A model generated the notes under the pieces. That model searched no databases. It worked only from the letters and a program-made list of their open reading frames with translations, and was not told the origin of the DNA. Of a DNA stretch of 4,386 nucleotides, positions 1 through 4,386 are shown piece by piece (the stretch's first letter is position 1; each line of letters opens with the position of its first letter). A program made the position numbers and the translations under genes. The DNA lies in IMG/VR virus record IMGVR_UViG_2711768010_000004, positions 1 through 4,386 of that record. One strand, written 5' to 3'. Origin of the DNA: a virus. Taxonomy: Duplodnaviria > Heunggongvirae > Uroviricota > Caudoviricetes.

Positions 1-60
1 CTCTCGTCTGGGGAATATCTCCCCGGCAGCCTTCAGGGAAAAATATCATCAGATGGCTGC

Positions 61-414
61 TTAAAAAAAGAACAAATGGTAGTGTCCGCTATTGCCAGTA
101 CACCTCAATTGCTCTGCGGCTTCGCTCAGAGCTGGCGTATGTTCCCGGCCTACTGATTCACACAGGTAATCAACGAAACCGGACACCAGTTTTCGTTCGC
201 GAGGCGTGATCGCCCCACCGACCGGAGTCCAGTAATCGAAACCCAGTTGCAGGAGTTTGAAAAAACGCTTGTGGAATGCGTAGTTACACACACGCTTAAA
301 GTCTGCGTGTATCCACTCACCTATTTTGATTTGATGCAGAAAATCGCAACTCTCCGGCGTCGCCGGGAGAAGTAATCCGGAAGAGGTTTGTTTGACCAGT
401 TGTATATGTGCCAT
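61..414 (-). CDS. Hypothetical prophage protein, 117 aa (MAHIQLVKQTSSG...HYHLFFF)
   Basis: Track ORF 61..456 begins at a TTG (454-456) that overlaps the upstream stop. An in-frame ATG at 412-414 is preceded by GGAGA with a 6-nt spacer, so I place the start there. No family recognised. Confidence 0.45.
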   Translation of the reverse strand: MAHIQLVKQTSSGLLLPATPESCDFLHQIKIGEWIHADFKRVCNYAFHKRFFKLLQLGFDYWTPVGGAITPRERKLVSGFVDYLCESVGREHTPALSEAAEQLRCTGNSGHYHLFFF

Positions 415-452
415 CGGCTTTCTCCGGTGGCACGGTGTTACACAGCAGGAGT

Positions 453-740
453 TCAATCCTGCTCAAGATTGTAGATGAGTTTATTCTTCAGCAAAAGCAG
501 AAAACCAGCCTTAAAACCAATCTCTTTCAAAACCCGTAATGATGTGACAAATTCGTCCTCACGCAAAATAAAACCGTCCGTCAGAAGTCCATTACAAAAA
601 TAAAATAACACAGCACCGCTCTTCCTTTGTTGAGATTGCAAACATCTAATGCGGCAATGGCTGACAATCGCTCCATTCTCAACGCGCACAGCATAGAGGC
701 CATTTTCACTAAAAATTTCACGCAATTCTTCGATTTTCAT
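453..740 (-). CDS. Hypothetical prophage protein, 95 aa (MKIEELREIFSENGLYAVRVENG...)
   Basis: ATG start at 738-740 and TGA stop at 453-455. Weak GGA-type RBS about 8 nt upstream. Sits downstream of a predicted promoter and the hok terminator. No family recognised. Confidence 0.45.
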   Translation of the reverse strand: MKIEELREIFSENGLYAVRVENGAIVSHCRIRCLQSQQRKSGAVLFYFCNGLLTDGFILREDEFVTSLRVLKEIGFKAGFLLLLKNKLIYNLEQD

Positions 741-821
741 CTTCAGAATCCTTCCAGATAAATAGCTCTCCCCTGTTCGGGGTCCATCCCTCTTCTCCCT
801 GCGCGCTACTTAAGTGAGTCG

Positions 822-849
822 ATTCTATCTGCGAAGGTGCGCGAATCAA
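822..849 (-). promoter_or_regulatory. Candidate sigma70 promoter for the two small downstream ORFs
   Basis: Minus strand reads TTGATT (plus 844-849), a 16-nt spacer, then TAGAAT (plus 822-827). It lies just 3' of the hok terminator and about 80 nt upstream of the ATG at 740. Sequence match only. Confidence 0.3.
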
Positions 850-857
850 ATTCACCG

Positions 858-914
858 GAAATAAACAACAAAAAACCCGCCGAAACGCTGAGAGATCACA
901 GCGATGGGCGGGTT
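858..914 (-). terminator. Rho-independent terminator ending the hok transcript
   Basis: Outer stem 874-881 pairs with 907-914 (AACCCGCC/GGCGGGTT). Inner stem 886-890 pairs with 899-903 (CGCTG/CAGCG). On the minus strand this is followed by TTTTGTTGTTTATTT. Confidence 0.45.
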
Positions 915-953
915 AAGTGCGGGTGCGTTGAGGATGCCTGACACATCAGAGGT

Positions 954-981
954 GGGCGGGGATGGGATCAGCTCCCCGCCC
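954..981 (-). promoter_or_regulatory. Stable stem-loop in the hok 3' UTR (possible fold-back/stability element)
   Basis: Perfect 9-bp inverted repeat GGGCGGGGA (954-962) and TCCCCGCCC (973-981) with a 10-nt loop, starting 9 nt after the hok stop. No U-run follows, so it is not itself a terminator. Hok-family mRNAs are known to carry structured 3' ends. Confidence 0.4.
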
Positions 982-989
982 GGTCACTC

Positions 990-1145
990 TTACTTCCTGG
1001 ATTCGTAGTCTACGAAGACAGCGACCTCCGTCTGGCCGGTTCGGATTCGTACCTCACAGAGGTCTTTCCTCGTTACCAGTGCCGTCACTATGACGGTTAA
1101 ACAGATGACGATCAGGGCGATTAACATCGCCTTTTGCTGCTTCAT
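990..1145 (-). CDS. hok: Hok/Gef-family small membrane toxin, 51 aa (MKQQKAMLIALIVICLTVIVTALVTRKDLCEVRIRTGQTEVAVFVDYESRK)
   Basis: ATG at 1143-1145 preceded by AAGGAG, TAA stop at 990-992. The translation is nearly identical over most of its length to chromosomal HokD/Gef as I recall them, with a hydrophobic transmembrane core and the conserved RKDLCEV motif. In the track it is fused to the upstream gene only because of read-through across the N run. Confidence 0.9.
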   Translation of the reverse strand: MKQQKAMLIALIVICLTVIVTALVTRKDLCEVRIRTGQTEVAVFVDYESRK

Positions 1146-1167
1146 AGCCTGCTTCTCCTTGCCTTTC

Positions 1168-1208
1168 NNNNNNNNNNNNNNNNNNNNNNNNNNNNNNNNN
1201 NNNNNNNN
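1168..1208. other. Assembly gap (41 N)
   Basis: Run of n characters. It hides the stop of the QueH-like gene and the hok leader region where mok and sok would lie. Confidence 0.99.
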
Positions 1209-1853
1209 GATAAGAGGGCGTCCCTGAGATTTGCGGTGTAGATTGGTATCGCGCAGAGAATACACACAGCCACAATATTCCTGCTGATAGAATTTTTCGC
1301 GCTTGCTGATTTCAATCATACGGGACGAGCCGCCCTGCTTGCGCCAGTTATAATCCCAGTACACCATGCCCGGATAATGCGCGACGGCTCGCCGCCCACA
1401 GTCGTTAACCTGCTGCATATTTTTCCAGCGTGAAATGCCCAGTGAACTGCTGATCACACTGAAACCATTTTCAGCGGCGTACAGCGCTGTCCGCTCAAAA
1501 CGCATGTCAAAACACATGGTGCAACGGATCCCTCGTTCGGGCTCCCATTCCATTCCTTTGGCTCGTTCAAACCAGTTGTCTGTGTCGTAATCAGCATCAA
1601 TAAACGGCACGCCGTGTTGTTCAGCAAAGCGAATATTCTCATCCTTACGAATTAAATACTCTTTCTGAGGATGAATGTTCGGGTTGTAGAAAAAGATGGT
1701 GTAGTCGATTCCCGAGGCCTGAAGCGCCTCCATCACCTCACCGGAACATGGAGCACAGCAAGAGTGCAGTAGTAGTTTGTTTGCCCCGTTTGGGAGCTCC
1801 AATTTGGGCCGTTTGAAATCAGCAACTGTCATAAATATGTTTATTGGGGTCAT
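1209..1853 (-). CDS. queH: QueH-like epoxyqueuosine reductase homolog (DUF208), 3' end incomplete in gap
   Basis: The translation carries the DUF208/QueH signature cysteines: HSCCAPC, RCTMC and YCGCVYS. At least 215 codons are visible, consistent with the usual QueH length. ATG at 1851-1853 (alternative ATG at 1830-1832); neither has a strong Shine-Dalgarno. Confidence 0.8.
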
Positions 1854-2000
1854 AAAAATATCAAAGAGTGTAGCATTAGAACGGGGCTATCGGAAACAGA
1901 TGTGTGACTGCTCCCCGCCCTTTCGGGTGGTCTCCTGATGATTTGAGGGTGCAGAAATCCCTCCGGTTAAGGATTAAATTTTTAACAGTGCTAAATTTAA

Positions 2001-2357
2001 TTATTCAGTTCTGGATTTTGTCGCCCTGCGTATCCGCGCTTTCGCGTTACGCTCAATCTGTATCAGCTTTTCTATATTTCTCCGCCTTTCCTGTTCCTCC
2101 TGGCGCAATAGCCTTACATCATCTGCCAGTCTGGTTTCTCTTTTTGCCACAGAGAGCATCCAGTCAAACGGCTCCACAACCGCACCGCAGATTTTACAGC
2201 GGACCTGACGCTCTTTTTCGTCAACCCGTACAGAGGCGTGATGGCAATATGGTCTTTCCGATGGCTCATAAAGAAAATTAACCTGATTACGAGGGTCATC
2301 CTCTTTTACCGGAAATAAAACGATATTGCTTAACTCATCTTCTGGTTTTATTTCCAT
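2001..2357 (-). CDS. Hypothetical Zn-ribbon protein with basic coiled-coil C-terminus, 118 aa
   Basis: ATG at 2355-2357 preceded by AAGGAGAGG, TAA stop at 2001-2003. Carries a C-H-H...C-x-x-C cluster (PYCHHASVRVDEKERQVRCKICG) and a K/R/E-rich tail. An alternative ATG at 2412-2414 abuts the upstream stop as TGAATG and would add 19 residues. Confidence 0.55.
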   Translation of the reverse strand: MEIKPEDELSNIVLFPVKEDDPRNQVNFLYEPSERPYCHHASVRVDEKERQVRCKICGAVVEPFDWMLSVAKRETRLADDVRLLRQEEQERRRNIEKLIQIERNAKARIRRATKSRTE

Positions 2358-2414
2358 GCTCCTCTCCTTTGATGCGAATGCCAGCGGTAATTGAAGCCTG
2401 ATAGCTAATTTCAT

Positions 2415-2837
2415 TCACAGTATCGCCTCCTGAAAATTACCCTGATAGAAAGCCAGTACACGCTGCATAGCTTCGCTCTTCCGGCACTCGCGACAGATTA
2501 TATTCAGGCGCCTGTCGTAGCGGCGTATTTCTCCGTCAGGTAATGACCAGATAAGGTCCGGATCAACAACAACCGGTTTCCTCACCTTTACTCTCGAGAG
2601 TTTTTTGCGGGCGCTTTGCCAGTCCTTGCGAGCCTGTTCAGACGGGAATAAGCCGTAGCCAGAATTATATACATCACCACTTGCGACCAGTTCTATGCAT
2701 AAGCGACCGACAGACGCACGACTGATACCTGTTTCATCTGACAACTGCCGAATCGTGACCCGACCGTCCTGATGCACGAGTTCCACAATTCGCGTCTTCA
2801 GTTCTTCCCGCTGTTCGGGAGTAAAAGGTTTCGCCAT
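2415..2837 (-). CDS. Winged-helix (HTH) DNA-binding protein, 140 aa, unknown function
   Basis: ATG at 2835-2837 is preceded by AGGAGG in the 14-nt gap after the DnaC-like stop. The N-terminal segment VTIRQLSDETGISRASVGRLCIELVASGDV looks like a winged-HTH. Stop at 2415-2417. Confidence 0.65.
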   Translation of the reverse strand: MAKPFTPEQREELKTRIVELVHQDGRVTIRQLSDETGISRASVGRLCIELVASGDVYNSGYGLFPSEQARKDWQSARKKLSRVKVRKPVVVDPDLIWSLPDGEIRRYDRRLNIICRECRKSEAMQRVLAFYQGNFQEAIL

Positions 2838-2851
2838 AAATCCTCCTGAAA

Positions 2852-3598
2852 CTACTTAACAACCCTCGAATGGCTAACATTCGGACGCCAGCTCTCCCAG
2901 TTAAAATTCACCCAGCGCCCGCCGTTCATGACCATGCGATCCATCACCCGCTCGCCGAGCAATGTTTTCATCACCTCATAGTTCAGGTTTGTCAGCATCC
3001 CCACGCTGCGCATCGACGCTGTCCGGCGATCAACAATCTGGTGCAGCACCACCTGCTCGTTTTTCGTCTCGCGCTGAATGCCAATTTCATCAAGAACCAG
3101 CAGATCCACTTCGCACAGCTCCCGCAAAAATTTTTCGCCTGACTGCCCGTCGTCATAGCTGGCGTGCAGGGCGCTCATAACATCAGCCACGGTAACCACA
3201 ATCACTGTCTGACCGTCTTTCAGCAGGCGATTCCCGATAGCTGCCGCTAAGTGATTCTTCCCGGTACCAGGTTTTCCGCTGAACGCAAAATTTGTACACC
3301 CGGTCATCAGTTCATCGGCGATGGATTTCGCCTGGCTTAACGCGTATCGCTGGCCGTCGTTCTGCACCTGGTAATTCGCAAACGAGCATTTACGGTGCAA
3401 CGGCTGGATGCCTGAGCGATTCAGAATTTTTTCCACCCGCAACTGGCGATTCAGGCGGTTGATCTCCTCGCTACGTTTCTGGCCTTCAGCAAGTTGCCAC
3501 TCGCGCCACTCCGCTACCGTTCTGAATGGGGCGGTTACATGTGGCGGGGTCAGTCGGCGGATGCGTTCCAGAACGCCGCCTGTCGCAATATTTTTCAT
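2852..3598 (-). CDS. DnaC-like AAA+ helicase loader / replication protein (YdaV-like), 248 aa
   Basis: Walker A (SGKPGTGKNHLA) and Walker B (LLVLDEIG) motifs are visible. I recall the sequence as very close to the Rac prophage YdaV replication protein. ATG at 3596-3598 lies 6 nt after the upstream gene's stop. Confidence 0.9.
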   Translation of the reverse strand: MKNIATGGVLERIRRLTPPHVTAPFRTVAEWREWQLAEGQKRSEEINRLNRQLRVEKILNRSGIQPLHRKCSFANYQVQNDGQRYALSQAKSIADELMTGCTNFAFSGKPGTGKNHLAAAIGNRLLKDGQTVIVVTVADVMSALHASYDDGQSGEKFLRELCEVDLLVLDEIGIQRETKNEQVVLHQIVDRRTASMRSVGMLTNLNYEVMKTLLGERVMDRMVMNGGRWVNFNWESWRPNVSHSRVVK

Positions 3599-3953
3599 GG
3601 TCCGTTACCCCCTGAAGCCTGGCGGGATCGCACTGTCCGGCAACGAGACGGTGTTAACCTGTCGGAGCAACGTCTCAGGCCGAACACCTTTCGGCGCGAA
3701 CAGGCCCTGGTATTCATTGGCGATGCTGTGTCGAATCACCTGCTCAGGTGTAAAACCCTGCTGACGGAATTTTTCCAGTTCCCGTATCGCCCCGTTAGCG
3801 CCCTGCTCCGTTCGAATCGGTTTTCGCAATGCCTGTCTGAACCGGACCCACTCATGCCAGAGTGTTTCCGGCAACCAATCGGGCAGCTCAATAGCCTCCG
3901 GCTCGAATTTTTTAGACGCTCGTTTTTGGCGAGGGGGAGATCAGTATTTAGAT

Positions 3954-3971
3954 CTTCCTCTTCCTCTTCCT
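3954..3971 (-). repeat. (CTTCCT)3 hexamer repeat encoding a six-glutamate acidic tract
   Basis: Three tandem CTTCCT units on the plus strand, read on the minus strand as GAG GAA x3 in the middle frame of the initiator gene. Confidence 0.8.
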
Positions 3972-3973
3972 CT

Positions 3974-4016
3974 GGTAACGCTTTTTGATCCGTTTGTGTA
4001 ACGCTGGCAGCGTTAC
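3974..4016. repeat. Iteron-like GTAACGCT 9-mers: one direct copy plus a 19-bp palindrome
   Basis: GGTAACGCT at 3974-3982. GTAACGCTG at 3998-4006 is mirrored by CAGCGTTAC at 4008-4016, giving the palindrome GTAACGCTG-G-CAGCGTTAC. Confidence 0.7.
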
Positions 4017-4281
4017 CTTTTCGTTTCAGTTCGCGTATTTTTGTTACTCGCTCGTTTGTAACCGCCCGTTTTTTTTAGAGCTTTTTCCGTTATGACGTTC
4101 AAAGTTAGGTAGAGAAAGCCCTCCGTCATTTTCGACCAGCCATCCAACCTGAATTAACGCATCAGCAAAACCAGACATAAAAGTGATGCGATCTATTGCA
4201 CTTTTTGTAACGCCGCGAGCGTTACAATCTGCATTACCGTCTATCATTTGTTGATCCGCCCATGCCCAGAAGCGAATAACC

Positions 4282-4386
4282 TGAGGTAGCCTGAGTTTAA
4301 CGGACACTCCTTCCTGAAATAGAATGGCATCAGAAGGAGCTAATAATGAGCAGAAAAACCCAACGTTACTCTAAAGAGTTCAAAGC
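4282..4386 (+). mobile_element. IS3-family insertion sequence, left end (IS600-like), partial
   Basis: A terminal TG at 4282 opens TGAGGTAGCCTGAGTTTAACGGACAC, an IS3-type inverted repeat. About 60 nt inside is an AGGAG RBS and an ORF opening MSRKTQRYSKEFK, which I recall as the IS600 OrfA N-terminus. The rest of the element is outside the window. Confidence 0.55.
4346..4386 (+). CDS. IS3-family transposase OrfA, N-terminal 13 codons only
   Basis: ATG at 4346 with AGGAG 7 nt upstream. The RYSKEFK motif is typical of the IS3-family OrfA HTH region. Truncated by the window edge. Confidence 0.5.
   Translation, partial: MSRKTQRYSKEFK

Follow-up and report, generated by a model that had tools for sequence, protein, structure and literature searches.

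Positions 4282-4386 of the window, by which we mean the whole stretch of 4,386 nucleotides that was analysed, almost certainly represent the left end of IS600, an insertion sequence present here as a complete, apparently intact copy of 1264 bp, which entered the replication-initiator gene of a defective lambdoid prophage of Shigella sonnei by simple insertion at codon 35/36 and thereby duplicated the trinucleotide ACC. When aligned with an E. coli O26 copy that bears the PGAP label 'IS3-like element IS600 family transposase', this segment corresponds to IS600 positions 1-105 with 100% identity and with neither a mismatch nor a gap (megablast E = 1e-47); 3113 records match the left end at an identity of at least 99%. 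The first-pass annotation, which had placed an IS3-family (IS600-like) left end at exactly these positions, was thus right with respect to the coordinates, the term 'left end' and the family. The features of the junction are as follows:

4282-4386, plus strand: IS600 left end, comprising the left inverted repeat, a promoter-like site, a ribosome-binding site and the first 13 orfA codons
From 4282, plus strand: left inverted repeat, TGAGGTAGCCTGAGTTTAACGGACACTCC
4297-4302 (TTAACG) and 4320-4325 (TAGAAT), 17-nt spacer, plus strand: promoter-like site directed inward to orfA; a consensus match only, with coordinates converted from locus L003
4334-4339, plus strand: AAGGAG, ribosome-binding site
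4346 (IS position 65), plus strand: ATG start of orfA, with 13 codons up to the end of the window reading MSRKTQRYSKEFK
4279-4281, no strand: left copy of the target-site duplication ACC; the right copy, outside the window, immediately follows the right end of the IS

To the left of the IS, the window matches an uninterrupted prophage gene of E. coli FDAARGOS_944 (L001) with 98.3% identity. This match ends with ...GAATAACC at position 4281 and is gone from 4281/4282 on, and the first base of the IS is T4282 (TGAGGTAGCC...). Because this T is common to the target and the IS, the boundary was set at 4281|4282 by taking the other junction and the duplicated ACC into account. Only the first 105 nt of the IS lie in the window; the full length of the element, the duplication and the far flank were read from other assemblies with identical sequence. 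These were found by an exact look-up of the chimeric 87-amino-acid open reading frame described below, which led to 481 blocks of public assemblies; three of the loci (L003, L004, L012) are 100% identical to the window outside a run of N.

In L003, L005, L006, L007, L009 and L010, the locus reads ...GAATAACC|TGAGG-IS600-CCTCA|ACC|TTCCCTAATG..., and the uninterrupted E. coli target reads GAATAACCTTCCCTAATG. The presence of ACC on both sides of the element, viewed together with the uninterrupted E. coli target, indicates a simple insertion with a 3-bp duplication, as is expected for the IS3 family. The IS lies antisense to the initiator gene, with its left end and transposase start head to head with the 3' part of the gene, while the first 36 codons, ydaT, cro and cI have been displaced by 1.27 kb to the other side of the element. 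Rightward extension, by which the full IS, the target-site duplication and the displaced 5' end were sought, recovered all of these in the same six loci; both the predicted IS3-family transposase and the continuing reading frame (orfA, extending to 100 amino acids) are present within the 1264-bp element of the window-identical assemblies.

The IS600 copy in these window-identical assemblies is 1264 bp in length and 99.8% identical to the E. coli O26 copy, from which it differs at three positions (789, 873 and 980); the closest full-length copies in the plasmid collection reside on Shigella sonnei plasmids (99.9-100% identity), including pSS046. Its two reading frames, orfA (100 amino acids) and orfB (272 amino acids), are both open, and a slippery site, AAAAAAAG (A7G), is present at IS position 316; the E. 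coli O26 copy carries the PGAP remark 'programmed frameshift'. OrfB matches the NCBIfam IS3 family transposase model (transpos_IS3) with 334 bits against a cut-off of 160, and the HTH_Tnp_1 and rve domains are present in the reading frames of the element. The terminal inverted repeats are imperfect and have TG...CA ends (TGAGGTAGCC... versus TGAGGTGTAC..., the reverse complement of the right end); they have their first six nucleotides and the core CGGACACT in common. The TG...CA ends, the orfA/orfB arrangement with its A7G frameshift site, and the 3-bp target duplication are all in keeping with the IS3 family.

The name IS600 rests on the PGAP annotation of near-identical copies, and the present element is 99.8-100% identical over all 1264 bp to annotated copies from E. 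coli and from S. sonnei plasmids, with nothing of substance that would set it apart. According to ISfinder, elements sharing more than about 90-95% identity are considered the same IS. Judged from its sequence, this IS600 copy is complete, and its reading frames and ends appear to be intact. IS600 belongs to the IS3 group of the IS3 family and was first described in Shigella sonnei. Neither the element nor this type of gene disruption is new, and the insertion site is present in published S. sonnei genomes. Its movement would have followed the route of the IS3 family, in which -1 frameshifting would yield an OrfAB DDE transposase, and the element would then transpose by a copy-out-paste-in process through a circular intermediate.

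The target of the insertion and its immediate neighborhood in the window comprise the following features:

3605-4281, minus strand: 3' remnant of the initiator gene (codons 36-262), delineated by alignment to the intact 262-amino-acid FDAARGOS_944 gene, three-frame translation, and matches to PHROG 2509 and PHROG 6451
4044-4307, minus strand: chimeric 87-amino-acid open reading frame (predicted), consisting of a GTG start and the first 8 codons read antisense from the IS600 left end, initiator residues 36-105, and 9 out-of-frame codons
2852-3598, minus strand: ydaV, encoding a DnaC/IstB-like helicase loader (Pfam IstB_IS21, E = 1e-19; the RefSeq homologue from E. coli is ydaV)

The interrupted gene consists of 262 codons, is located between a ydaT-like gene and ydaV, and is split at codon 35/36. 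That the IS had inserted into an initiator gene, as proposed in the first-pass annotation, is borne out by the intact homologue, for which a full-length match to PHROG 2509 'replication initiation protein' (E = 1.2e-89) and a partial one to PHROG 678 'replication initiation O-like' were obtained; RefSeq has a homologue under the name 'phage replication initiator YdaU family protein'. The fragments in the window match the PHROG 2509 profile at positions 34-102 and 193-277, so that the remnant begins at profile position 34. On the basis of these matches and of gene order, we regard the remnant as that of a lambdoid replication-initiator gene at the position of ydaU and lambda O. Its role as an initiator, namely origin binding and recruitment of the helicase loader, is putative and follows from the location of the gene upstream of the DnaC-like ydaV.

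The gene order corresponds to that of the lambdoid O/P module in its ydaU/ydaV type, as found in Rac-like and related prophages: cro, ydaT, initiator, and a DnaC/IstB-like loader. The initiator itself differs from the Rac YdaU protein, which possesses a DUF1376 domain (seen in L008). No Pfam family was detected in the intact 262-amino-acid initiator at E <= 0.01, DUF1376 (PF07120) included, and no NCBIfam family either. A different initiator family therefore occupies the same position; the copy in the window is a pseudogene of this type.

IS600 is one of three lesions in the initiator gene and not its sole lesion, since two additional frameshifts were found. One of these stems from a 10-bp deletion between positions 3931 and 3932 that removed one AGGGGGATTT copy between AGGGGGA direct repeats, and the other from a run of T8 instead of T6 (two extra T) at 4069-4076. 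Both are common to all S. sonnei loci that align across them. It is because of a frameshift that the chimeric reading frame ends after 87 amino acids; the 5' piece of the gene constitutes a 41-amino-acid reading frame of 36 native residues followed by 5 residues read from the IS. The initiator gene also contains a (TCCTCT)n hexamer repeat at 3953-3973, which encodes an acidic EEEEEE linker. The long-read assemblies L005, L006, L007 and L009 have a version of this repeat extended by 18 nt, and L010 has yet another version, reflecting either copy-number variation or a difference between assemblies.

Further downstream, two additional genes of the minus-strand cluster are relevant to the possible consequences of the insertion:

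990-1145, minus strand: Hok open reading frame (the RefSeq homologue from E. coli is HokD)
1209-1853, minus strand: gene for the epoxyqueuosine reductase QueH, situated between the replication genes and hok; RefSeq records the same gene in the E. coli relative

Since ydaV is located directly downstream of the disrupted initiator gene, any polar effect would reach it first. A transcript that starts at the early rightward promoter would need to pass through 1.26 kb of untranslated antisense IS, and it is therefore plausible that the insertion is polar on ydaV and on the genes that come after it. Such polarity would be of little consequence in a prophage already reduced to a rearranged remnant, whose initiator gene is frameshifted at two other places and whose hok gene has a promoter-like site of its own. 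The earlier suggestion that the IS may silence hok along with the rest of the operon is therefore unlikely to hold. In L003, a promoter-like site (TTGATT-18-TAGAAT) is present within the hok locus at 13163-13192; the numbers of promoter-like and terminator-like sites did not exceed the shuffled expectation in either scan, and single sites of this kind are only suggestive. On its 3' side, the site borders a region (L003 13199-13374) that matches Rfam sok in full length (RF01794; 117 bits, gathering score 59); this region lies upstream of the hok reading frame and then extends into it. The hok and sok genes are known to have promoters of their own.

The same part of the window contains a run of 41 N at 1168-1208, which corresponds to 247 nt (L003 13100-13346) in the otherwise identical assemblies and covers the 3' end of the QueH gene and part of the hok/sok control region, the promoter-like site included. 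A 287-amino-acid reading frame at 990-1853 is an artefact in which QueH and Hok are joined across this run.

A second copy of IS600 is found at the opposite end of the window, where it adjoins a truncated gene:

1-107, plus strand: last 107 nt (positions 1158-1264) of the second IS600 copy, recognized by identity with L002 3668-3773; same orientation
61-456, minus strand: DUF1367 gene, truncated by the second IS600 copy

This second copy is full length in L003 (14407-15670). It is flanked by AAC and ATT and hence lacks a target duplication, and on the far side it borders on a phage integrase fragment that neighbors modCBA. The missing duplication and the integrase/modCBA neighborhood indicate that the present flanks resulted from a rearrangement, and it is likely that this rearrangement at the second copy was IS-mediated. 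The window therefore represents the unique 4.17-kb segment between two IS600 copies, together with about 105 nt of the repeat at each end. Short-read assemblies typically break at repeats such as IS copies, and the longest contig carrying the chimeric reading frame measures 2-5 kb in 397 of the 481 blocks. The two copies hence explain why the window stops within the IS: it is the stretch that separates them, bounded by breaks typical of short-read contigs, and it is probably such a contig in its entirety.

A window that begins and ends about 105 nt inside IS600 has the appearance of contig ends collapsed at a repeat, and this could raise the suspicion that the IS end is an assembly artefact, i.e., that a repeat overhang was joined to the prophage contig while no IS is truly present at the site. 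However, contigs of 0.98-4.86 Mb from several independent assemblies have this junction as well, together with a complete IS and the matching duplication, and the exact chimeric reading frame is present on 492 contigs, so that an artefact of this kind is hardly credible. A further explanation views the IS boundary as a true loss, in which the genome of the window itself was deprived of the 5' end of the initiator gene and of the early promoter region by an IS-mediated adjacent deletion. The first-pass annotation had likewise described the native 5' end as lost and the early promoter as presumably lost with it. This explanation draws on L004 (GCA_965230885.1), a locus that is 100% identical to the window and from which the 5' fragment, ydaT, cro and cI are absent, and on the exact 5' fragment being present on fewer contigs (344) than the chimeric reading frame derived from the 3' part. 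Yet in six of the ten places read, the six loci listed above, the duplication and the 5' end are found directly beyond the IS, and L003 represents nine further similar places. Beyond the IS, L003 continues with the 5' fragment, ydaT, cro and a cI-like repressor gene at 99.7% identity to the E. coli prophage. In most assemblies, the native 5' end is accordingly displaced rather than lost, its first 36 codons directly following the IS and the 3-bp duplication, and the cro/cI region is found further beyond the IS. Moreover, L004 itself retains the same left junction, which argues that the original event was a simple insertion and that the deletion occurred later; the flank in L004 is a secondary adjacent deletion next to the IS. 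We thus consider it unlikely that such a loss shaped the window's own genome, and retain simple insertion as the preferred explanation.

One may also ask whether the insertion is functional, either because the left end provides an outward promoter or start for the chimeric reading frame and the genes from ydaV to QueH, or because the pair of IS600 copies turns the 4.17-kb segment into a composite transposon. A GTG start codon 26 nt inside the IS does read out into the initiator remnant, and two full-length copies in the same orientation do bracket the segment; but the chimeric reading frame stops after 87 amino acids, and the segment is found in one genomic context only. A scan for promoter-like sites detected no outward promoter at the left end of the IS, the sole site pointing inward to orfA. 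With respect to a composite transposon, the outer flanks, AAC and ACC, do not constitute a duplication, and the right-hand copy has its own ACC/ACC; the two copies consequently did not arrive as one unit. A functional insertion of either type is, in our view, very improbable. There is likewise only a slight chance that the IS600 pair around positions 108-4281 (the truncated DUF1367 gene, Rem, hok/sok, QueH, DUF977, ydaV and the initiator remnant) acts as a composite transposon or permits the segment to loop out by IS600-IS600 recombination. If this were the case, the hok/sok-QueH module would be mobile or unstable within S. sonnei.

Three loci (L008, L011, L012) were left out when the genomic context was assessed, as they are scaffolds with runs of N and mixed prophage copies in which other sequence or N follows beyond the IS. 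At L004 7723-8765, the right end of IS600 abuts a truncated copy of another IS3-family element (junction CCTCA-GTGAGCTGCC); the partial IS600, DUF1391, cI, cro, ydaT and the initiator 5' end are missing from this locus. Just upstream of the displaced initiator 5' end in L003, a 1-bp deletion at position 8194 relative to FDAARGOS_944 frameshifts the ydaT-like gene and is another sign of decay in the same operon.

The assignment of the prophage to Shigella sonnei follows from the names given to its products. The exact chimeric reading frame and the exact 5' fragment are both named as S. sonnei proteins (FORC11_0721; SS482266_0802, strain 4822-66) and are found on 492 and 344 contigs, respectively; on its 492 contigs, the chimeric frame is called as a gene under the name 'putative bacteriophage protein [Shigella sonnei]'. 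From these matches, the sequence is taken to be a decayed prophage remnant of S. sonnei. All Shigella species show an expansion of five insertion sequences, of which IS600 is one (Hawkey et al. 2020, PMC7373316). The notion in the first-pass annotation that IS600-like elements are typical of Shigella therefore stands as far as the host and this expansion are concerned, but the element is also widespread in E. coli: of 5426 complete genomes, 3060 contain a match to the left end and 1614 a full-length copy. IS600 by itself is consequently not diagnostic of Shigella.

The junction, in contrast to the element, was found in none of the 5426 complete E. coli genomes. A scan of species-representative genome contigs did not detect the 39-nt junction either, and Shigella presumably has no separate representatives in that set. 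The junction GAATAACC|TGAGGTAGCC does not occur in the complete E. coli genomes, and the chimeric reading frame that it creates is found on 492 contigs bearing the name S. sonnei; it might be of use as a lineage marker. Beyond annotation, the insertion matters little: it explains where the window ends, as contigs break at IS600, it marks an S. sonnei prophage remnant, and it adds one more documented gene disruption by IS600 in a genome already known for IS expansion.

The locus as a whole resembles the IS-driven pseudogene formation and prophage decay described for Shigella (PMC7373316), given the frameshifts in ydaU and ydaT, the IS-flanked rearrangement, and the adjacent deletion in one assembly. 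Within 20 kb, L003 contains six IS copies or fragments: three of IS600, one IS2-like element (a label based on the reading of its two open reading frames), one member of the IS110 family, and another member of the IS3 family. The third IS600 is a partial copy (positions 1-712) at L003 6380-7091, about 1.7 kb beyond the full copy, where it adjoins the IS3-family and IS110-family elements.
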